A stretch of DNA of 64,000 bases from an uncultured Chloroflexia bacterium (GTDB lineage: Bacteria > Chloroflexota > Anaerolineae > CG2-30-64-16), in NCBI GenBank assembly GCA_963810095.1, contig CAWEMM010000014.1, positions 264,099-328,098 on the forward strand, in the 5' to 3' direction. Below the pieces are notes generated by a model. It worked only from the letters and a program-made list of their open reading frames with translations, searched no databases and was not told where the DNA came from. The position numbers and the translations under genes are program-made. Each line of letters starts with the position of its first letter. The stretch's first letter is position 1. Positions 1,800 to 64,000 of the stretch are shown here, piece after piece.

Positions 1800-3643
1800 T
1801 GGGTTTCATTCTCGACGGCCTCGAAAGCGAGGCATACGACCGCCAATACGGCGACCGCGAGCTGCTGCGCCGGGTGCTGACCTATTTCCGGCCGCACACG
1901 AAGCGCATGCTGCTCGTCGCGGTCGCGCTGACCCTGAACTCGCTGGCCGGCAGCGGCGGTCCGATCCTGATTTCGTCGGGCATCGACATGGTCGAAAAGA
2001 ACCCGTCGCGGCAAGCCATCTTCCTGCTTGCGGGCGGCGTCCTGCTGCTCGGCATCGCGGCCTGGGTGTTCAACTTCATCCAGCAGTGGTTCTCGGCTCG
2101 CGTCGTCGGCGACGTGGTGCTGAAGATTCGTGAGGACGTTTTTGCCGCCACCATCCGGCACGATATGTCGTTCTACGACGAGCACCCGTCGGGCAAGGTC
2201 GTGAGCCGGGTGACCTCGGACACGCAGGACCTGTCGGACGTGGTGACACTGATTACCAGCCTCATCAGCCAGGTGATGTTGGTGCTGTTCCTGGCTTTCT
2301 GGCTTTTCAGAATCGACGCCCGCCTGACGGTGGCGCTGTTCCTCATGGCGCCGCTGGCCGCGTTCATCGCTCTGAGCTTCCGGCGCATCGCACGCACCGT
2401 CACCCAACGCGCGCGGCGGGTGACCGCGAAGATCAACGCGCAGATCCAGGAATCGGTCAGCGGGATCGTCGTGGCGAAGAGCTTCCGCCAGGAGCGGGCC
2501 ATCTACCAGGCCTTCGCAGATAACAACCGCCAGGCGTACGGGGTGACGCTGCGGCGGGGCATCACGCTGGACACGATCTTTCCGATCATCGCCACCTTCT
2601 CGGGCATCAGCGTCGCGATCCTGATCTATTTCGGCGGCATGGCGACCCGCGGCCCGAACGGCATTACGACCGGCAACTGGTACCTCTTCATGCAGTCGGT
2701 CGGCTTCTTCTGGTGGCCGGTCATCGGCATTGCGTCGTTCTGGAGCCAGTTCCAGGATGGGCTGGCCGCGTCCGAGCGGGTCTTTGCACTGATCGACGCG
2801 GAGCCCAAGGTGGTGCAGAACGCGGCGGAGCCGGTGACCCGGCTGACCGGCGACGTGCGATTCGAGCACGTTCAGTTCACCTATACGCCGAACGTTGAAG
2901 AAAGCCGCGGCGGCGAGGTGGTCCTGCCGGACTTCAACCTGCACATCCGCCCGCAGGAGACGGTGGCGCTGGTCGGCCACACGGGCGCCGGGAAGAGCAG
3001 CGTGGGGCGGCTGGTGGCCCGCTTCTACGAGTTCCAGGGCGGGGCGATCCTGGTCGACGGCGGGGCATCAGGGACGCACGATATCCGCTCGCTCGACCTG
3101 CAGGCCTACCGCCGGGAGGTCGGCATCGTGCCGCAGGAGCCCTTCCTGTTCTCCGGCACGCTGCGCGATAACATCCGCTACGCCCGGCCCGAGGCGACGG
3201 ACGCCGAGGTCGCGGCGGCCGCGCGGCGAGTGGCGGGTGGCGAATGGGTGGACGATTTACCGCACGGCCTCGACACCGACGTGGGCGAGCGCGGTTCGAG
3301 CCTGTCGATGGGGCAACGGCAGCTGACCGTGCTGGCGCGGGTGGTGCTGAAGGACCCGGCGATTTTCATCCTGGACGAGGCGACCGCGAGCGTGGACCCG
3401 TTTACGGAGATGCAGATCCAGGAAGGGCTGGCCGAGGTGATGGCCGACCGGACGGCGATCGTCATCGCGCACCGGCTGTCGACCGTGGTGGCTGCCGACC
3501 GGATCATCGTGATGGACCATGGGGAGATCATCGAGGAAGGGAACCACGAGGAACTGATGGTGCGCGGCGGACATTACGCGACGCTGTATGACACCTACTT
3601 CCGGCACCAGTCCATCGAATACGTGGAGGCGCAGCGGGCATGA
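1799..3643 (+). CDS. ABC exporter, fused permease/ATPase (heterodimer subunit 2)
   Basis: 614 aa; TMD, GHTGAGKS, LSMGQRQ, FILDEAT; ATG overlaps the upstream stop. Confidence 0.95.
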   Translation: MGFILDGLESEAYDRQYGDRELLRRVLTYFRPHTKRMLLVAVALTLNSLAGSGGPILISSGIDMVEKNPSRQAIFLLAGGVLLLGIAAWVFNFIQQWFSARVVGDVVLKIREDVFAATIRHDMSFYDEHPSGKVVSRVTSDTQDLSDVVTLITSLISQVMLVLFLAFWLFRIDARLTVALFLMAPLAAFIALSFRRIARTVTQRARRVTAKINAQIQESVSGIVVAKSFRQERAIYQAFADNNRQAYGVTLRRGITLDTIFPIIATFSGISVAILIYFGGMATRGPNGITTGNWYLFMQSVGFFWWPVIGIASFWSQFQDGLAASERVFALIDAEPKVVQNAAEPVTRLTGDVRFEHVQFTYTPNVEESRGGEVVLPDFNLHIRPQETVALVGHTGAGKSSVGRLVARFYEFQGGAILVDGGASGTHDIRSLDLQAYRREVGIVPQEPFLFSGTLRDNIRYARPEATDAEVAAAARRVAGGEWVDDLPHGLDTDVGERGSSLSMGQRQLTVLARVVLKDPAIFILDEATASVDPFTEMQIQEGLAEVMADRTAIVIAHRLSTVVAADRIIVMDHGEIIEEGNHEELMVRGGHYATLYDTYFRHQSIEYVEAQRA

Positions 3644-3705
3644 CGCAGAGCGGGGGCGGGGCGCGGCCGTACGCGGCTGCCCCCTGCGCGGTGCCGCCGG
3701 TCGCG

Positions 3706-27341: not shown

Positions 27342-27989
27342 TCAAGTAGGGACGCAGTTCAGCCGGCACGAGGCCCTGCCGGGTGGCGTAGAGCACCGCG
27401 AGGGCCCGGCCGGCAGGCTGAGTCGCTGCATCAGCGCCTCGAGCCGTCTGTCGACCTCATCCGGAGCCAGCGACATTTGCGCCGCGATCTCATCCGTCGA
27501 GTGCTCGCGGGCCAGCAGCGACAGGAGCTGCCGGTCTTCCTGGCTCAGGCCGTCCCCGCCGCCGTCCGGCGTGGGGACATCGCGCATGAGCCGCCCCGCG
27601 CTGTCGGGTGCAAAGCGCACCCGGCCCTCGGCCGCCGCCAGAACGGCCTGGCGCAGGTCGTCGGGCCGGGTGTCTTTCAAGACATACCCGATCGCGCCCG
27701 CCTCGATCGCCCGGTGTACCCCGCCTTCCTCCACGACGCTCGTCATGGCCACGATGTGAGCGCGGGGCAGTGCGCGGCGCAGCTGCCGGGTGGCCTCGAC
27801 GCCGTCCATGGCCGGCATGAGCAGGTCCATCAATATGACGTCGGGACGCAGGTCTTGTGCGAGCTCGAGGGCTTCCTCGCCGTTGCGCGCCTCGCCGACG
27901 ATGGTTACTTCGGGGTCGCTGTCGAAGAACATCTCCAGCCCTTGCCGGACCATGCTGTGGTCATCCGCCACCAGGACTCGAATGGGCAT
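27342..27989 (-). CDS. NarL/FixJ-family response regulator
   Basis: VADDH, DVILMDL.MP, GYVLK; degenerate C-terminal HTH. Confidence 0.85.
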   Translation of the reverse strand: MPIRVLVADDHSMVRQGLEMFFDSDPEVTIVGEARNGEEALELAQDLRPDVILMDLLMPAMDGVEATRQLRRALPRAHIVAMTSVVEEGGVHRAIEAGAIGYVLKDTRPDDLRQAVLAAAEGRVRFAPDSAGRLMRDVPTPDGGGDGLSQEDRQLLSLLAREHSTDEIAAQMSLAPDEVDRRLEALMQRLSLPAGPSRCSTPPGRASCRLNCVPT

Positions 27990-28181
27990 AGAAAATCCTC
28001 CGGCCGCGTGAATACGCCTGTAGCAGCGTTTACTTGATTATATCCCATCCGGAGGGCGAATTCAATATGCTTATTGAGGGAGATAGGGGAGTGGTATCAA
28101 AAAGTGTTGAACCAGATCGGCCGAGCTTTGACGCCGATAGGCTTTGGGTGGGGGGCCGGCCGCCCCCAACCGAGGTTGCTG

Positions 28182-28880
28182 CTAGATATGACTGCCGCCC
28201 GCCTCTACCCAGGCGTCCGCAGTCTGAGGGTCATCTTCCAACCGCATGTGCGACATGGATGCTTCGAGCGCGACCACCCGGGCGGTCAGGTGGCGCATCA
28301 GCTCGTTGTTCGGGTCGGGCAGGCGGTCGTGGTGCAGGTCGATGCGCTCCGGCTCCGGATCGTCCCCGTTGCGGCTCTTGATCCGCCCGGGCACGCCCAC
28401 CACCACAGAATGGGCCGGCACGTCCTTCACCACCACCGAGTTCGCGCCGATGCGGCTGTGTGCGCCGACGAGGATGGGGCCGAGCACCTGCGCGCCTGCG
28501 CCAACCACGACGTGGTCCTCCAGCGTCGGGTGCCGCTTGACCTTCTCCCAGCTCACGCCGCCGAGCGTCACGTTGTGGTACAACGTCACGTCGTCGCCGA
28601 TTTCGGCCGTCTCGCCGATCACCGTGCCCATGCCGTGGTCGATGAATAAGCCCCGCCCGATCTGCGCGCCGGGATGGATTTCGATTCCGGTAAAGAAACG
28701 CGAGATGTTGCTCACCAGCCGCGCCAGCCACTTGAACCCGTTCGTCCACAGCGCGTGCGCGACCCGATGCGCCCACAGTGCGTGCAGCCCGGGGTACAGA
28801 AACAAGACCTCCCAAACCGTTCGTGCGGCCGGGTCCCGGTCAAAGACCACCTGAATATCGCGGCGAAGTGTTCCCAACAT
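28182..28880 (-). CDS. cysE: Serine O-acetyltransferase
   Basis: [26 protein letters not shown] hexapeptide repeats. Confidence 0.96.
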
Positions 28881-28904
28881 CTTCTCGCTCTCCTATGCAC
28901 GGAT

Positions 28905-28974
28905 TAACACAAGGGCACAAAGACACAAAGAAAAGCTCGTCGATAAATCTCTGTGTCTTCGTGTCTTTGTGTTA
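28905..28974. repeat. Palindromic element with 9-nt periodic arms (CACAAAGAC / GTCTTTGTG)
   Basis: Inverted arms visible; related to 31445-31532 and 13328-13404. Confidence 0.7.
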
Positions 28975-28979
28975 GCTCG

Positions 28980-29942
28980 TCACCCTTCCAGGTCCGCAAA
29001 CAGCACCGTGCTCAAGTACCGCTCGCCGTTCGAGGGCACGATGACCACGATGCGCTTGCCGGCATTTTCCGGCCGCCGTGCGATCTGCACGGCCGCGTGA
29101 ACCGCCGCGCCCGAGCTGATGCCGACCAGCAGCCCCTCTTCCCGCGGCAGCCGGCGGGCCATCGTCAGCGCCTCGTCGTTCGTCACCTTGACGATCTCGT
29201 CGATCAGCCCCGTGTCGAGCACTGCAGGCACGAACCCCGCGCCGATGCCCTGGATCTTGTGCGGGCCGGGCTGGCCGCCCGACAGGACCGCCGAGTCCGT
29301 CGGCTCGACGGCCACGATCTTGACGTCTGGCCGGCGCTCCTTGAGCACCCGGCCGACGCCCGTCAGGGTGCCGCCCGTGCCGACGCCCGAGACGAAAATG
29401 TCGACCTGCCCGCCCGTGTCCCGCCAGATCTCCTCGGCCGTCGTGCGCTCATGGACGGCCGGGTTCGCCGGGTTTTCGAACTGCTGCGGGATGAAATAGT
29501 GTTCGTCGTCCGAGGCCAATTCGTATGCCTTGCGGATCGCACCCTTCATGCCCTCGGCCGCCGGAGTCAGGATCAACTGCGCGCCGTACGCCCGCAGGAG
29601 CTTGCGGCGCTCGAGGCTGGCGCTTTCGGGCATGATCAGCACGCACTTGTAGCCCTTGGCCGCCGCGACCATGGCGAGGCCGATGCCGGTATTCCCACTC
29701 GTCGGCTCCAGGATCACCGTGTCGGGTCCCATCTTGCCGGCCGCCTCGGCCGCCTCGATCATGCTGAGGCCGATGCGGTCCTTCACGCTGCCGCCCGGGT
29801 TCTGGTACTCCAGCTTGGCCAGCACTTCCGCGCCTGCATCCCGGGTCACCCGGTGCAGCCGCACCAGCGGCGTGTTGCCGATCAGCTCCGTCACGTCGTC
29901 CGCGATCCGGGGTGAAACCTTGTCGATCGTAGTCATCCTCAT
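28980..29942 (-). CDS. cysK: Cysteine synthase A
   Basis: NPGGSVKDR (PLP Lys), [22 protein letters not shown]. Confidence 0.97.
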
Positions 29943-49742: not shown

Positions 49743-51112
49743 GAGAGTGTTGGATAACGTGGCAGAGGAAGGGCAAAGGCACCCTGTCGCGGCGAAGGTA
49801 GCGGTTTCAGGAGTGCTGAAGGTCGTTACGGGTGCAAAAGAGGGCGCTCGGAGGTGCGTGTGAGGCTGGCCGGGCGGTCAGTAGGCGCGCCAAAGCCAAG
49901 GGGTTAGCTGGCGCGGACGGGGGCCAGACGCTGCGTGGGGCGCAAGCGTACGCCGGTCAGCAGCGTGACGATGCGCTTCAAGTTCAGCACCAGGGCCGTC
50001 AGCTGGGCTTGTAACCCATAGCGCCGCAGGCCGAGGTAGCGGCAGCGGCCAAAGCCGTGCCAGCGTTTGGCCTCGCCAAACTTGCGCTCAATCTTGTAGC
50101 GCTCGGCGTGTCCGGCGTGGTATTCCGGCGAGTCCTTGAGCTGCTGCCAGGCGTCCCGGTGTTCGTTACGCGCCGCCGTGCGGTAGTCATTCAGGGTCAG
50201 CGCCGAATGCTTGCCTTGGGCCGCAAGTTGATAATGCAGCTCGGTGTCATCGTAGGCCTTGTCGCCCGCATAGATCTCGGCCGTCACGCCCACTTCGGCA
50301 TCGTGGGCCAGCAGCTGCGGCACCTGCTTGTTGTCCGCCGCACTGCCCGGCGTGGGCGCCAGGGAGGTGATCAGGCCCGTCTCGGCGTTGACACTGACAT
50401 GGCTTTTGTAACCCAGGTACTGCACGTCCTGCATGCTGATCTTGCCATCGGGACCGGTCTTGCGGCGCTTGCCTTTCTTGACCCACTGGGCTTGCTTATC
50501 CCGCGGTGGCCGGCCCTGCGCCTGGCGTTGTCGGTCGGCGTCGTTGTCGACGTCCGCCACCGTGTGCACGCTGTCGACGACCTGAATCTGGCCCAGGCGA
50601 ATCCCGGCGGCCTGCGCCTGGCGCAGCACGCTATCGCCGATGGCCTGCAACTGCTGCCAGCCGTTGGCTTCGCGCAGCCGCCGGTTGAACTCGCTGAGCG
50701 TACTGTGATCCGGCGCCAGTTCGTCCACCGCCAGCCCGACGAACTCTTTGATCGCCAGGTTGAGGTTGGTCGCCTCCTCCACCTGCCGCTCCGAGAAGCG
50801 GTACAGATAGGCGATCACCAGCATTTTCAGGATCGTGACCGGCGGATACGGCGGCCGCCCGGCTTCCGCCAAGCCCTTGTACGCCGGCAGGAGGATCTCC
50901 GTAAAGCTGTCCCAGTCGATGACGCGGTTCAACTGCACCAGAAAATGGTCCCGGGGCACCACCCGCTCGCAAATCGGCGCACCAAAGAACGAACCTAAAC
51001 CTAACGGCTTGAAGTGCTTCTCGGCCATCATTACCCCCTGTCGGCTGCGATGACCTCATTGTAAGCACTTCCCAAAATCGCGCGAGTTTTCGGGGAGTTA
51101 TCCAACACTCTC
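49743..51112 (-). mobile_element. IS5/IS1182-like insertion sequence (1370 bp)
   Basis: Perfect 16-bp TIR GAGAGTGTTGGATAAC; 9-bp TSD GCCAAGAGC at 49734-49742 and 51113-51121. Confidence 0.95.
49904..51031 (-). CDS. DDE transposase (IS5/IS1182 type)
   Basis: GRPPY, PDHSTL, VDS, GYKSH, GDKAYD, R..IERKF. Confidence 0.95.
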   Translation of the reverse strand: MMAEKHFKPLGLGSFFGAPICERVVPRDHFLVQLNRVIDWDSFTEILLPAYKGLAEAGRPPYPPVTILKMLVIAYLYRFSERQVEEATNLNLAIKEFVGLAVDELAPDHSTLSEFNRRLREANGWQQLQAIGDSVLRQAQAAGIRLGQIQVVDSVHTVADVDNDADRQRQAQGRPPRDKQAQWVKKGKRRKTGPDGKISMQDVQYLGYKSHVSVNAETGLITSLAPTPGSAADNKQVPQLLAHDAEVGVTAEIYAGDKAYDDTELHYQLAAQGKHSALTLNDYRTAARNEHRDAWQQLKDSPEYHAGHAERYKIERKFGEAKRWHGFGRCRYLGLRRYGLQAQLTALVLNLKRIVTLLTGVRLRPTQRLAPVRAS

Positions 51113-51126
51113 GCCAAGAGCGGCAA

Positions 51127-51155
51127 TTGACAAGGTCCGGCGGTGCGGGTAGACT
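51127..51155 (+). promoter_or_regulatory. sigma70-type tRNA promoter
   Basis: TTGACA-N17-TAGACT, 10 bp before the tRNA-Gly fragment. Confidence 0.8.
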
Positions 51156-51165
51156 AGGTGCCGGT

Positions 51166-51205
51166 GCGGGTGTAGCTCAGGGGTAGAGCGTCTGCCTTCC
51201 AAGCA
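51166..51205 (+). pseudogene. 5' half of tRNA-Gly(TCC); probable prophage attachment junction
   Basis: GCGGGTGTAGCTCAGGGGTAGAGCGTCTGCCTTCCAAGCA, then loss of tRNA structure with no T-arm. Confidence 0.85.
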
Positions 51206-51317
51206 CCCTAGACAGACCGACAACCCTTGTATAACCTTTGTAGTACGACATCTAGTGTCTCCGCAACTGTTACCCCACTAGATATGGGCGTTGGGGCTAC
51301 CGAAAGGGAGCCTGCCC

Positions 51318-52220
51318 ATGTCGACTGAGCGTCTACTCTCTGACAAATTGGCCCTTGCAATCGAAACCTTCTACACGGCGAAAGAGGGTGAGCGGATCGC
51401 GGCGCGCACCCTTGAGACATACCGCCGTGCGGTCGGCATGTTCGAGACGTGGTTGCGCGAGCGGGCATAACCCAGCCGGAGCGCATCACGCCCGCCCATG
51501 TGCGGCAGTACTTCGCCGAACTGGGCAAGCGGGGCTACTCGTCCTCCAGCGTCCACGACTACGCCCGCCCGGTGAAAACGTTCGTCCGGTTCCTTCACGC
51601 CGACGATATCCTGCCTGTCGACGTCATGGCGCGGGTGAAGATGCCACGGGTCGACAAGCGCATCCTCCCCGCGTTCACCCCGGACGAAGTCCGGGCGGTC
51701 CTCAAAGCCTGCAATACCCAGCGGGATACTGCGCTGTGCCTGTTCCTGCTCGACACCGGGCTGCGTGCCTCCGAACTGTGTGTCCTCAAGATGCGCGACT
51801 ACAACCCCAAGACCGGGGCGGTCATGGTGCGGCTGGGAAAGGGGGGCAAGGATCGGGTTGTTTACGCCGGAGCCAAGAGCCCGGCGGGCGATCCTGCGCT
51901 ACATGATGACCCGTGACAATCCCGCCGACGACGCGCCGCTGTTCCCGTCCGTGCGGGGACAAGACCAGCACCTTACCGCCAGTGGGCTACTGATTGCGTT
52001 GACAAAGATCGGCAAGCGGGCGAAAGTGGAGCACTGTCATCCGCACACGTTCCGGCGCACGTTTGCGTTGTTCTCGTTGCGGTCGGGGATGGACGTCATG
52101 CGGCTGGCCGCACTCATGGGGCATTCGGAACTGGGCGTCCTGCGGCAGTATCTCGACTTCAACCTTGACGACCTTGAGGACGCGCACGCGGAGCACGGGG
52201 CGGTCGACAACATGATCTAG
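51318..52220 (+). CDS. Tyrosine integrase/recombinase (two frameshifts)
   Basis: DTGLRASEL, GKGGKDR, HPHTFRR, LMGHS..Y catalytic residues. Confidence 0.92.
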
Positions 52221-59327: not shown

Positions 59328-60193
59328 ATGGCCCAGACATGCGATACATACAAGCATGTGGCGGAGGAATGTGGTTCCAGACTTGAACCGACGCAAAGCT
59401 ACTCTGGTTCTACCTGCTCACGAACCCGTCGACGAAGCAGGCGGGCATCTACCGGCTCTGCCGCCGCGAACGATGGCGAACGAGACCGGGCTGCCGCGGA
59501 CGGGTCCGGCGCATCGCTCGCCCGGTTCGAGCAGGACGGCAAGGTCATGTACGCCGACGGCGTGATCTGGGTCAGCAAGATGCGGGCGTACCAGACCGGG
59601 GAGGGCATCGGGCGCAAGATGTCGGCGAGCAGATCATGGGCATCGAGAACGATCTGAGGGAGATACCCGACGGGCGGGTCAAGCGGGCGTATCTGAGACA
59701 CTATGGATACCCTGTCCCGGATGACCCGTTACCCTCAGATGACGTAGGGAGACCCTACTGACAGCGTATCCGGAGGGTGTCGGGACGGTCCCGACACCCT
59801 CCGCGCAGCCCGACCCGCCGCCTCCCGCAGACGGCAACGCGGCGCGATGGATGCGAAGGAGTGCGTCACGCTCGATCACGTCAAGCAGTACCTCCGTCAG
59901 GGCTGAAGGGGCCGACGGAGCGCGGGTTCAACCGGATCGCCGCCTGCGTCGCGCTGTACAACGCCCGGTTCGGCGACGACTATCCCGGCCGACTTCGGGC
60001 GGCTCGGCGAGATCGGCAAGCTGCTCTCCGGCGGGGATCTGGCGCTGGCGGAGCTGATCTGGAACTGCGCCGATCCCGGCGGGCGACCCGCACGACTATC
60101 TGAAACGCACGGTCGCGGCAAGCGCCGAACCGCACCCGGTCGGGGCAAGGGGCACAGGAACCGCCCCGGCGCGTATCGTCGATCCGCAGATGA
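59328..60193 (+). CDS. Phage replication initiator-like protein (frameshifted)
   Basis: LLWFYLLTNP....AGIY, MA.ETGL HTH; lies between primase and DnaB. Confidence 0.6.
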
Positions 60194-60210
60194 GGCGATA
60201 AGGAGGCAAC

Positions 60211-61550
60211 GTGCCGAGCCGTCAGTCCAACGGGACGCACGCAGGTTGAGACGGAACGGGCGATCATCGCCGTCCTGCTCAACGACACTCACGCGAGTCG
60301 TGCCCGTCATGGGCGCACTCGACGGGCCGGACGTGTTCACCGATCCGGTCTGCCGGCCGGCGTATGGGACGATCCTTGCGCGTCTCAAAGAGGACGTCGC
60401 CCCGAACGTTTACACGGTCTCGACCCGCTCGGGGCTCACGCTCGATGCGCTCAACGACATCGCCCGCCGGTGGAATACCAAAGTCAGTCAGGAAGTGCTG
60501 TACCTCTGCGACGACGTGGTCCGGGCCTACCGCGAGCGGGAACTCGCCGATGCACTCGACGAGGCGCGGACGCTGCTTGGCGCGGGCACGGACGACCTGA
60601 GGGGTACGCGACGCACGTCATGTCGATGATCGCCGCCGCCTCCGACCGCAAGGGGCAACGGGACTCGTCGATCACGGCGGTCAACGAACGACTCGACGCC
60701 GAAATCGCCGAGGCTGCAAACGGCATGGCGGGCTACTCGACCGGGCTGGAGTGGCTGGACATCAAGACGGGCGGGCTGCAGAAGTCGCACGTCTGGGTGA
60801 TCGGCGCGCCATACAAAGGGCAGAAAGACGTCGACCGCCCGGAACATGATCCTCCCGGCGCTGGCCGGGGCGCAGCGGTCGACTGGTTCGCCCTGGAGGG
60901 CACGCAGACAGGCGTGTCGGCGGCGCTCCAGTCGATGCTGGCGACGAAGCTGCTGTACGCGTGGCAGGGCCACCGCGAAGACAGGATCCTGTCTGAGACC
61001 TACCTGCTGCGGGGGTATGCCGAACCACGATGCAGAAACAGGCGCTGACCGAGCGCACGGCGGACGATCGAGGGGTACAACCTCCGCATCTACGACTCGA
61101 AGGACGGGATCACGTCGCCGGAACGGATGGCGACGCTGGTCAAGCGGGATCAGATGCTCTACGGGATGCAGATTTTCGTCGTCGACTTCATGCAGCGGCT
61201 GGGCACGGGCAAGCTGTACGACCGCATGGAGGCGGCGACGCAGACGCTCCAGACGCTGATACAGGAGGGCGGGCTCACCGGGCATACTGCTCTCGCAACT
61301 GAACGAGTCGGCGATCTGGGCGACGACGGGACGGGACGCCGACGAGCAACTACTCGCCCGGCGGCAAGGGCGGCGGCGATCTGCCCGCAGCGGCAGACTT
61401 CTTGATCACGACATCGTACAAACGGACGGACGACCCGGAGACGGCTGGGCGTGCGAGTTGAAGCTGGCCCGTCACGCGCAGCCGGGCAAGTGCATGTACG
61501 AGATCAACCCGCCGTCCGGGTTGATCCTGCGTGAACTGGGGGAGGAATGA
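60211..61550 (+). CDS. DnaB-like replicative helicase (frameshifted)
   Basis: ETERAIIAVLL, GYSTGLEWLD..TGGL, IGAPYKG.K, FALE, VVDFMQ, LSQLN. Confidence 0.78.
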
Positions 61551-61594
61551 ACGCACGGGGACATCTTCCCCTACGTCGACGCCCGGAGGGGCAA

Positions 61595-62163
61595 GTGATC
61601 GAGACAAGCGATTATCGGCTGGACGCTGACGTTCTGGCGTCCCTTGCTGGGAACGCAGATGGTCGGCGAACTGGCGGGACCGACCGACGAACGCTGACGA
61701 CGGCGACTATCGCCGAACTCGGGAAGCACACGACCTACTTCTTCCGCAACGCGAAGGGCGAACCGATCCTCTACGACTATCACCTGCATGGGGTTTCTCA
61801 AGGAGGCGGCGAGGCGCTCAACGGCAGGGTCACGGGCGGGGTCAAGAACCTCCGCAGAAGGTCGAGAATCTGGTTTCGTGTCCCCGGTCGAGATTCCGCT
61901 GATCCTCCCGGCCGGGGGAGGAACCCGGCCTGTTCGAGCGGCCCTGCCGCAGGCGGACGCCGTTCGGGCAGCGGGTGTTCATCGCTTGCAGCGAGACGAT
62001 GCCCGCCGAGACCCGGCTGACCGCCGGGATCAGCGTGTATCCCGGCGAGATCAATCAGCGGGTGCTGGAGGACTTGCTCGACTGGGGCTTCCATCACGGC
62101 ATGGGGCAGTGGCGCACGGGCGGCTGGGGCCGATTCCGCTACACCCTGAGCCGGAACGAGTAA
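61595..62163 (+). CDS. Stand-alone Cas7/RAMP-like protein (~190 aa, frameshifted)
   Basis: Reconstructed across frames: YRLTLTFWRPLLGT; GEPILYDY..MGFLKEAA; ERPLR; SETMPAET; LLDWG...GMGQWRTGGWGRF (G-rich loop). Confidence 0.72.
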
Positions 62164-62280
62164 CGCGACGGCGCAGCTACGCTAGGCCGGAGCGATCCGC
62201 TGCGCACGCGAGCAACGGCGCAGCCAACCCAAGCGACCGACGCAAAGGCACAGCAACCGGAGGGCGGGATCGACCGCCCC
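62164..62280 (+). ncRNA. Putative small RNA: pentamer-periodic tract plus 3' hairpin
   Basis: NGC-NN periodicity, three GCRAMGGCRCAGC copies, hairpin GGGCGG/CCGCCC at 62262-62279. Confidence 0.55.
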
Positions 62281-62301
62281 ACAAGTAAGGGGAGAAAAGA
62301 G

Positions 62302-62538
62302 ATGCGGTATTGCGAGTATTGCAGCGCGGCGGGAGGCGACGGAACACATCACCGTTATCGTCGACGCATTCGGGCCGGACGGCATCAGAGCGGTTGTATG
62401 CGCAGTTCTGGCTGTGCCCGGACTGTGTCAAGGCGCTGGGGCAGTTGTTCGTCGAGGACGACGGACTCAAGGCGCGGGTTGCCGCCGCGCTGTTGCGGCG
62501 CAGCCGCGGGAATGCCAGAAGTAACCATCGGCTATTGA
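62302..62538 (+). CDS. Small zinc-binding phage protein (frameshifted)
   Basis: CEYC...LCPDC; purine-rich RBS. Confidence 0.5.
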   Translation: MRYCEYCSAAGGDGTHHRYRRRIRAGRHQSGCMRSSGCARTVSRRWGSCSSRTTDSRRGLPPRCCGAAAGMPEVTIGY

Positions 62539-62634
62539 CGACGACTCGCCGGGTCGTCCGGCGGGTCGTTGTCGCGCTCATCTACCCGGCGCATTGCTAC
62601 CCCGTGCGCTGGAGTCCACTTCTGAGGTAGGTCT

Positions 62635-63100
62635 ATGAAGTTGTTTGCACTTGCGCTGGCGGTCGTCGGCGTTCTTCGTCACGCCCCAGCCCGTGACCGG
62701 AGAGGCGACGTACTACAACCCCGACATCATGGAGGGCGTGTACGCCTATAGGTTGCGGACAGGCGAAGTGCAACCGTGCCCGGAGTGCGTGGGCATGGTG
62801 GCGCTGCTCCGGGCGGAAGACATCGGTCGCAAGGTCTGGCTGGAGCATCCCGACGGGTCGATCATCGGACCGCTGCTGGTCGTCGACTGCGCGGCGGAAA
62901 GACGACGTCCCGCATCTGGTCAGGCGGAACTGGGTCGTCGACGTTAGCTGGGAAATCTCCCGGCACTGGAAGATGCGCGGGCCGATAGACGGCGTGACCG
63001 TCCACTTCCGCCGGCCCAGGCAACCGGAGCGGATCGAGCCGGGTCGCCCGCACGTCAGCCCGCCCCGGCAGGCGATGGCAGGTGCATGTGGGACGTCTGC
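62635..63100 (+). CDS. Secreted double-psi beta-barrel (RlpA/3D-like) protein (frameshifted; 3' end approximate)
   Basis: Signal-like N-terminus, GEATYY, IGRKVWL, LVVDC, VDVSW. Confidence 0.55.
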
Positions 63101-63162
63101 CCATGCAGGCGGATGCTCCCGTGCAACGCAGCATCTTTGTACTAACAAGAGGACGGCAAAAC

Positions 63163-63471
63163 ATGGCACACAATGCAATCAAGATGACCGTGCCGCAGGT
63201 CGAGGCGGCGCTCGACAGCGAACCAGGGGCGGCTGGCGCTCCTGTTCACGTCGGCGAATTGCCCGAACTGCCCGGCAGCGGCGGCGGCACTGGACCGGGC
63301 GGAAAAGCGGGGCGCAGTTGCTAAGGCGCTGCGGGTCGACGCCGAACAGAGTCCCGAACTCGCCGACTACGCCGGGGTCATGGCGACGCCGACCCTCCAG
63401 GTGTTCGACGGGGCGATGTTGCGGGCGGTCGTCACGGGCAACCGGGTCGCACGGGCGCTCGATCAGCTCTA
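63163..63471 (+). CDS. Hypothetical phage protein (frameshifted)
   Basis: GAGG RBS, MAHNAIK. Confidence 0.4.
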
Positions 63472-63481
63472 GGGAGGCGAG

Positions 63482-64000
63482 ATGAAGGCGACGTTTGTGA
63501 CGCTGGCGCGCACAGCCGAGCGGGTCTGGAGAGCGTCTGGCAGTTCCGGCGGGAGACGAAGGACATGTATCCGATACCGGATCGCCTCTGGTCGGCGCGG
63601 TTCGCAGTGACGGAGGGCGGCGAGACGCTCGACGCGGTCATCCGGGCGGAACCGCAGTTCAAGCGCAACAACGCAGCGGGAAGTCAGCCGGGAGCGGGAA
63701 CTCGCCGACACCGCGTTCATGCTGGCGACGACCATCGGCGAGACGATCCCGATGTCCCTGTTCGACAAGGCGACGGTCGCGCTGGGCGTGCTGGGCTATC
63801 CGTCGGACATCGACGTCGTTCCGCTGCTCGTCGGGCAGGCGCTCTGGGCGGTCAAGTCGGGCCGGTCGCAACTGGCAGCTCAAGGCGGCAGTCGCGCTGC
63901 TCGTCGTCATCGACATCATGGACGATCCGGTCGGATCGGTCGACGAGACACTTGCACGCCTCAAGGCAAAGTGGGGCGGAGGCGTCACAGGCTGGCGCAC
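63482..64000 (+). CDS. MazG-like nucleotide pyrophosphohydrolase (partial, frameshifted)
   Basis: TEGGETLD ... ERELAD (ExxE...ELAD pattern). Confidence 0.5.

Follow-up and report, generated by a model that had tools for sequence, protein, structure and literature searches.

What is a short tract with a 5-nt rhythm doing between two genes of a prophage? The tract lies near the end of a 64-kb stretch of DNA (this whole stretch is called the window below). A first-pass annotation, made from the letters alone, had proposed that it is non-coding, is not CRISPR and acts at the RNA level. This proposal fits the guide RNA of a VIPR system (vrRNA): a Vipr-type RAMP is predicted to be encoded upstream, the G and Y of the repeat units are conserved among relatives, and the hairpin behind the units covaries. 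On the comparisons set out below, the odd 5-nt-periodic tract is most likely a VIPR guide RNA.

VIPR systems are described as a ~20-kDa minimal RAMP (Vipr) acting with vrRNAs of 9-16 YNNGG repeats, in which GGY is fixed and NN is hypervariable and which are followed by an invariable structured 3' tail (10.64898/2026.04.26.720920). According to the same preprint, the systems occur mainly in phages and prophages and fall into seven types; there are systems with one vrRNA only and others with staggered arrays, and the repeat has the alternative forms NNNGG, YNNNG and NNNNG. They recognize dsDNA with a one-base skip per unit, and competing phages are repressed (10.64898/2026.04.26.720920). The structure of the system of Escherichia phage SUSP1 is described as a helical filament in which each repeat is bound by one protomer; G1 is read by H17 and D177, G2 is read by R138 and W178, and Y3 sits in a pocket that includes R179 (10.64898/2026.04.26.720927). 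A third VIPR preprint is 10.64898/2026.10.15.759431.

The tract and its setting

In the unit parse of the window, the tract consists of ten 5-nt, six 6-nt and two 4-nt units (Table 1). The 18-unit parse of the first-pass annotation was reproduced: it spans 62164-62256, with CCGG remaining, and 14 of the 18 units read N-G-C-N-N. Also borne out were the poverty in T (4 T in 97 nt) and the recurrence of a 13-mer, GCRAMGGCRCAGC, at 62165, 62212 and 62242. Four or fewer T are found in 0.42% of all 97-nt segments, in 8 regions of the 64-kb window. The 13-mer has a single further match in the 64 kb (minus strand, 22734), and of 300 dinucleotide shuffles only one produced three non-overlapping copies with at most 2 mismatches. 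The 13-mers had, in addition, been read as a mini-array bounding variable segments. This part did not hold; each copy is instead a 6-nt punctuation unit plus the following 5-nt unit of the same array.

Table 1. Positions of the features at the locus (numbering of the window; L012 and L013 are two metagenome contigs with a homologous region)
Feature	Position	Strand	Remarks
DnaB-like helicase, phage replication module	60246..61405	+	three frames; PHROG 19, E 0.006 and 0.007 (two fragments)
vipr, predicted small RAMP protein, ~189 aa	61595..62163	+	GTG 61595, TAA 62161-62163; all three frames
Putative vrRNA repeat region	62164..62259	+	~18 units N-G-Y-N-N (equally Y-N-N-N-G), unit parse
13-mer, copy 1	62165..62177	+	6-nt punctuation unit CGACGG and next unit; L012 counterpart at 1280
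13-mer, copy 2	62212..62224	+	CAACGG and CGCAG; L012 counterpart at 1326
13-mer, copy 3	62242..62254	+	CAAAGG and CACAG; identical in L012/L013
3' tail hairpin GGGCGG/CCGCCC	62262..62279	+	6-bp stem, 6-nt loop
RBS GGGGAG (62289-62294) and ATG 62302 of next gene	62289..62304	+	conserved in L012/L013
Small Cys-rich gene (MRYC..C ... FWLC..C)	62302..62538	+	frameshifted here, intact (72 aa) in L012

The comparison with shuffled controls that the first-pass annotation had suggested gave a divided answer: within the window itself, the periodicity is weak, whereas across the family it is overwhelming. In the tract, lag-5 identity was 0.424 versus 0.311 +/- 0.051 in shuffles (p=0.0235 for lag 5). Lag 16 outscored lag 5, and the maximal z over 20 lags was matched by 6.4% of the shuffles (lag-corrected p 0.064). 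The Fourier power of GC dinucleotides at period 5 had p=0.108. Successive G[CT] spacings of 5 or 6 made up 7/18 in the tract, a number reached by 3.3% of 99-nt segments. The 5-nt period of the window alone is thus marginal and non-significant once the lags are corrected for; it is only together with the related loci that the period is compelling. The RNA fold of the whole tract was unremarkable (z -1.36).

Searches with the tract itself gave little. Rfam had no match in the tract (four sub-threshold matches lay elsewhere in 60-64 kb) and none in five related loci. The tract DNA had no match in the phage collection and is single-copy in its own genome. All 50 matches of the 16-mer GCAAAGGCACAGCAAC in IMG/VR were unrelated by context, and a search of sequencing runs with words of the tract listed no RNA run, the highest share of words being 0.09. 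Sigma-70-like promoter sites were absent from 60-64 kb. A CRISPR array, which would show direct repeats of ~23-50 nt between unique spacers and usually cas genes, was rejected: the only repeats are the 13-mers, 47 and 30 nt apart and part of the 5-nt lattice. Among the ORFs scanned in 41-64 kb, no cas family was detected. Replication iterons, a cluster of primase sites, a G-quadruplex and a Chi array were considered and dropped.

The prophage setting named in the first-pass annotation was confirmed. From ~51.3 kb the prophage carries an integrase, an HNH gene, AAA_24, DUF932, a second HNH gene and the DnaB-like helicase, all upstream of the tract, and IMG/VR contains 108 confirmed relatives. 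At 49904-52220, a minus-strand DDE transposase (DUF772 and DDE_Tnp_1) stands beside a frameshifted tyrosine integrase; this pair marks the left prophage edge. Within 59900-64000, nearly every gene (DnaB-like helicase, vipr, the Cys-rich gene, a DPBB-like gene and later ORFs) is split between frames by 1-nt indels.

Behind the tract, the small Cys-rich gene had no match in Pfam or PHROGs and no tblastn match in the phage collection. Among the loci read, it is kept downstream of the tract only in L012/L013, and it is a possible accessory gene. A gene resembling secreted DPBB/3D-domain proteins follows soon after the array in the window (62645-62947), in L013 (1114-1485) and in L139 (3716-4084), the L139 copy with a Pfam 3D domain match. 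The DNA of the DPBB-like gene (~62696-63008) is the sole part of 60.4-63.5 kb that matches genomes of relatives (17/40).

The upstream gene and its close relatives

GGAGG at 61585-61589 precedes the GTG start of the upstream gene. Its closest homologue, P0001 (187 aa), is 71% identical over the last 59 residues, and tblastn with P0001 recovered the pieces of vipr in frames 3, 1 and 2, with ~7 frame changes. When the 62-aa C-terminal piece was compared with 1.84 billion representatives, 113 proteins were found at E<=1e-3. Most full-length family members are ~190-230 aa long and match by their last ~60 residues; thus, the TAA at 62161-62163 is the true end of the gene and the tract no coding extension of it. 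Ten homologues looked up by source name were all just 'hypothetical protein'. Family members compared with Pfam (12 members), PHROGs (6) and NCBIfam (6) gave no significant match, the only one listed being Csm4 at E 0.08.

Structure prediction was more telling. An AF2 model of P0001, based on family alignment A1, reached pLDDT 89.6 and pTM 0.83, and Foldseek matched it to 179 PDB chains at E<=1e-3. The top matches listed were all type VII, III-A, III-D or III-E Cas7-family chains or Cmr1, including type VII Cas7, Csm3 and Cas7-11; the best match was 8z4j_J (E 2.8e-8, TM 0.58). According to this model, the upstream protein has a Cas7-type RAMP fold, and a long beta-hairpin at residues 110-134 of the model may represent the thumb. 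Vipr proteins are expected to combine an RRM core with a glycine-rich loop and a thumb, and the window ORF contains the G-loop GMGQWRTGGWGRF.

We compared the family with that of SUSP1. In the 90.7-kb phiSUSP1 record (KT454805.2), profile A1 had one match (E 0.003), which lies within CDS 28474-29061, and this CDS is flanked by GGYNN arrays, in agreement with the description in 10.64898/2026.04.26.720920. The hhalign match of A1 to the single SUSP1 protein was weak (46%, E 2e-4); with A6, an alignment of 26 SUSP1-type proteins, the probability was 95.2% (E 2.8e-8, 182 columns). These profile comparisons indicate that the window protein family is homologous to the SUSP1 Vipr family. In KT454805.2, the SUSP1 vrRNA arrays at 27500-28030 and 29062-29510 are legible as strict GGYNN 5-mers, each ending in a conserved tail; the record carries no annotation of the arrays.

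Two related loci came from metagenomes. Contigs L012 and L013, with proteins 76-83% identical, have a homologous intergenic region of 156 nt, which is T-poor; the hairpin, the RBS and the small Cys-rich gene recur behind it. Their tract has 23 units, of which 17 are 5-mers, and the three blocks resembling the 13-mer are spaced by 46 and 36 nt (47 and 30 in the window). Mismatches between the window and L012 numbered 2/16 at G, 1/15 at Y, 8/15 at N1, 2/15 at N2 and 7/15 at x. A third lineage, ~90% identical, was recovered as contig pieces of 917, 675 and 785 nt from soil-metagenome runs of three studies (X1, X2 and X3). Its intergenic region is 136 nt long, compared with 138 nt in the window and 156 nt in L012. 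Its four substitutions in the array fall on N1, x, N2 and x, and none on G or Y. Single-base indels separate its array from that of the window at 62183, 62204, 62211 and 62236; when they are applied, both 4-mers of the window and one extra 6-mer become 5-mers. The unit lengths of the soil-run relative are 6,5,5,4,6,5,5,5,5,6,5,5,5,5,5,6,5,6, so that non-5-nt units fall from 8/18 in the window to 6/18, and its 13-mers are 46 and 31 nt apart.

The 6-bp hairpin at 62262-62279, which the first-pass annotation had seen as closing the tract ahead of the RBS, also stood, and its pairing covaries in the relatives. RNAalifold with three sequences retained all six pairs. At 62264-62277, the G-C pair of the window is replaced by C-G in L012/L013, and at 62263-62278 its G-C pair gives way to A-T in X1, X2 and X3 (62263 G>A, 62278 C>T). 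As judged from these alignments, two of the six pairs have undergone compensatory changes, independently of each other. A terminator was rejected as a reading of the hairpin: the stem is without a T-run behind it, and a terminator scan gave no call.

The ~7 frame changes in vipr raise the question of whether the locus still works; if they are real, it is dead. It would then be a VIPR locus by descent within a decaying prophage, with vipr a pseudogene and the tract a relic. The integrase, the DnaB-like helicase, the Cys-rich gene and later genes are frame-split as well, and a transposase adjoins the integrase, as expected under decay. However, the breaks are 1-nt indels between pieces that lack in-frame stops and keep 40-71% amino acid identity to P0001 throughout, and the region is at a contig end: the window forms the end of contig C14, one of the 16 contigs that make up a 6.13-Mb genome, and chromosomal ORFs earlier in the window reach 600-900 aa. 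The short-read contigs X1-X3 (~90%) differ from the window by many single-base indels; thus, the frame breaks of the window look like consensus errors. One pair of these indels, +G after 62149 and -1 at 62160, brings the C-terminus nearer to the homologues when applied, and the array register becomes more regular. Much of the frame damage at the contig end is probably consensus error, and we regard a dead locus as unlikely.

Arrays across related loci

With the 62-aa fragment and P0001 as queries, nothing was found in IMG/VR or in genome contigs, and profile A1 found none in 36 genomes of the host family. Related loci were retrieved with a narrower alignment, A3, which yielded 80 of the 108 confirmed IMG/VR loci and 27 genome loci. 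These loci were retrieved by motifs from one clade and include near-duplicates, and counts over them are non-independent.

A lag-5-periodic segment of 100-850 nt abuts the gene in 95 of these 107 loci of one clade (near-duplicates included). In the same non-independent set, the array lies downstream in 57, upstream in 30 and on both sides in 8; among the 12 loci without one, several are truncated or have the segment slightly farther off. Lag-5-periodic segments occupy 33% of the 500-nt flanks versus 3.5% farther out. In 100 unique tracts (32.6 kb), the distance from one G[CT] to the next was 5 nt in 2,579 cases, 6 nt in 699 and 4 nt in 136. The unit logo of these tracts reads G, then Y (C.67, T.33), an A/G-biased position, a roughly uniform one and a C-poor one. 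One array downstream of its gene runs CAAAG CACAG CAGAG CTTAG, and the array-bearing DNA ranges from 31 to 69% GC.

Conservation follows the same phase. With six pairs of related arrays pooled, mismatches were 13/251 at G, 51/250 at Y, 78/247 at N1, 90/247 at N2 and 93/246 at x. The expectation of the first-pass annotation that NGC is conserved and two bases vary is supported in that G and Y are kept and the rest varies, with the correction that three positions per unit vary.

Arrays of several loci show further features. At L139:3490-3680 there are recent tandem duplications, among them a 15-nt block present six times and several blocks of 10 nt; the duplications are always multiples of 5 nt, and arrays appear to expand by in-register duplication. 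The array of L092 terminates (3600-3660) in a long hairpin with a loop resembling a tRNA T-arm (GGTTCAAATCC) and then in a T-run; a terminator and a tRNA-like cap are both conceivable readings. The array of L068 ends in two GC-rich hairpins, one of them with a GCGA tetraloop. Pfam had no match for 70 of the 92 neighbours upstream and for 69 of the 88 downstream, the remainder being heterogeneous, and no vap1-like or conserved accessory gene was recognized among the neighbours of the family.

The arrays might instead be elements of replication that the neighbouring protein binds as DNA, for example a priming zone or an origin built on short iterons. The tract adjoins a DnaB-like helicase, and at other loci the neighbours are often replication or recombination genes (AAA_24, SSB, RecT, helicases). 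Yet the arrays are asymmetric between the strands, with the gene strand rich in G (G 0.34 vs C 0.19) and, over the 100 unique tracts, GG at 5-nt spacing 495 times on the gene strand versus 17 times on the opposite one. The hairpin shows compensatory changes, and the neighbour is a predicted Cas7-like RAMP, homologous to a protein described in the VIPR preprints as binding such repeats as RNA. We consider a DNA-level element very improbable.

Within the putative guide arrays, the code of the clade differs from the published one at the base before G-Y, which is A in 0.33, G in 0.30, T in 0.22 and C in 0.15 of cases in the 100 unique tracts. In the aligned G-loop, the A1 family has G-x-G-Q-W-R, versus G-V-G-D-W-R in SUSP1, and Q170, W171 and R172 are nearly invariant in A1. 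From this alignment we infer that the freeing of the first G may be linked to the change from Asp177 to Gln. The freed position varies like both guide positions, and three bases per unit might carry target information.

The units that are not 5 nt long follow a rule of their own. In the unit parse of the clade arrays they are mostly YNNNGG, and 785 of 1,079 six-mers end in GG; the six-mer consensus is CAAnGG, followed by C. Six-mers are 5, 6 and 7 units apart in 268, 209 and 136 cases, versus 91, 75 and 59 when the unit order is shuffled, and distances of 1-3 and of more than 9 units are depleted. Parse-free autocorrelation of G[CT] peaks at 5, 10, 15/16, 21, 26, 31, 36, 41/42, 47, 52 and 57 nt, which corresponds to one extra base per ~31 nt and hence to a superperiod of ~31 nt (e.g., L139:3116-3690 and L123:2708-3040). 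With about one extra base per six protomers, the six-mers could set the helical register of the filament; they could also mark the boundaries of short contiguous (staggered) vrRNAs. The main text of 10.64898/2026.04.26.720920 uses none of the terms hexanucleotide, YNNNGG and periodicity, and its supplementary S17/S18 may cover the feature. It is a possibility, and a doubtful one, that the clade uses a modified code (only G2 and Y3 fixed) plus a ~31-nt six-mer grammar that the VIPR main texts leave undescribed.

Such order bears on the idea that slippage produced a degenerate, neutral microsatellite, or that the tract is a mere GC-rich 5' leader of the next gene without function. The weak statistics of the window alone would fit this idea, as would the recent tandem duplications in some arrays, for example the 15-nt copies in L139. 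Against it stand the tie of the array to one gene family over 31-69% GC, the phase-specific conservation and the coherent ~31-nt superperiod, which leave a functionless tract highly improbable.

Translation of the tract, whether by read-through of the vipr stop or as an extended N-terminus of the next gene, has next to no credibility: frame 1 is open from 62164 to ATG 62302, in frame with both genes and likewise in L012, and the intergenic length is a multiple of three in both (138 and 156 nt), but a tract that has only 4 T in 97 nt offers few stop codons in any frame, so that the openness of frame 1 across 62164-62301 reflects the near absence of T and not conserved coding, while the soil-run relative has 136 nt and an RBS lies ahead of ATG 62302. 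A conserved coding frame, which the first-pass annotation had set against its own proposal, was not found: the homologues stop within a few residues of the same point, and a 1-nt indel between the window and L012 in the conserved 3' part shifts the frame.

Interpretation and comparison with known systems

The predicted fold, the homology to SUSP1 Vipr, the association of gene and array, the phase-specific conservation and the covariation of the tail together indicate that 61595-62301 is very probably a prophage VIPR locus, with a vipr gene encoding a minimal Cas7-like RAMP followed by one putative vrRNA. We counted against this reading the period of the window, the absence of GGY, the ~7 frame changes, the lack of a recognizable conserved accessory gene, the 18 units, the plain hairpin and the non-independence of the locus counts.

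For the window vrRNA, we infer its transcription, processing, binding, pairing rule and target. By analogy with SUSP1, Vipr protomers would bind the vrRNA one per unit and form a helical filament, with the conserved bases sequestered in it and the variable ones presented. The latter could then pair discontinuously with the dsDNA of a competing phage or mobile element, which would be silenced. We searched the window's own host genome for targets under 12 variants of the pairing and skip rules, with shuffled guides as controls. The best guide match was 25/36 (N1N2, skip 1), versus 25 in each of four shuffled guides and 24-26 in ten others, and one rule variant gave 35/52 versus 30-33 in shuffled guides. 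None of the 12 rules revealed a conspicuous target in the host genome. For VIPR in general, the main text of 10.64898/2026.04.26.720920 reports no self-targets.

VIPR is a form of RNA-guided DNA recognition, described only in 2026 preprints and proposed as the ancestor of the CRISPR RAMP effectors. The window locus adds a further case of this known kind, with features of its own clade, and it illustrates that VIPR guide RNAs can be spotted from raw sequence. A clade of high-GC environmental prophages in which one of three fixed bases is relaxed, with a matching change in the G-loop, would amount to a natural test of the way in which the code is read. The 6-nt punctuation, if new, bears on how the filament is measured or the array is cut into guides, and both matter for the mechanism of VIPR and its reprogramming.

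Three known systems invite comparison. TRAP binds 11 (G/U)AG repeats of the trp leader, separated by spacers of 2-3 nt, and it resembles the present case in that an RNA with a period of ~5 nt carries a short fixed motif read per subunit. However, TRAP assembles as a ring, has another fold and controls attenuation, and the variable bases of its spacers carry no information. We know of no homology between TRAP and VIPR.

The backbone of Class 1 CRISPR-Cas effectors (Cas7, Csm3 and Cmr4 on crRNA) has the same RAMP fold as that predicted here. As described for Class 1 and VIPR, each protomer covers a fixed number of guide nucleotides and a thumb breaks the pairing periodically (10.64898/2026.04.26.720920, 10.64898/2026.04.26.720927). 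In contrast to Class 1 systems, the window region examined has no CRISPR repeats or spacers, no cas1 or cas2 and no other cas genes. Here, the period measures 5 nt and the fixed bases are sequence-specific, whereas Class 1 has 6 nt and no sequence requirement, and the guide information would be discontinuous here, unlike that of Class 1.

Type II VIPR, represented by SUSP1 and a P. fulva prophage, is the closest comparison. Several differences set the window clade apart. Its units read N-G-Y-N-N and those of type II G-G-Y-N-N, so that strict GGY is not kept, and Asp177 of SUSP1, which reads G1, corresponds to Gln (Q170). About every sixth unit is 6 nt long here, whereas the SUSP1 arrays contain 5-mers only. 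The window has 18 units, compared with 9-16 in published vrRNAs, and many members of its clade have uninterrupted arrays of 300-850 nt. The SUSP1 tail is a pseudoknot, whereas the window tail appears to be a simple hairpin, as judged from stem pairing. No vap1-like neighbour was recognized in the window clade. The likenesses are a ~190-aa minimal RAMP with a G-loop of the form G-x-G-x-W-R...G-R-F, tandem 5-nt repeats with fixed G/Y and other positions variable, directly beside the gene and on the same strand, a structured 3' tail, a phage or prophage setting and homologous protein profiles. The N-G-Y-N-N unit of the window clade, moreover, agrees with YNNNG, one of the alternative repeat forms given in the methods of 10.64898/2026.04.26.720920.
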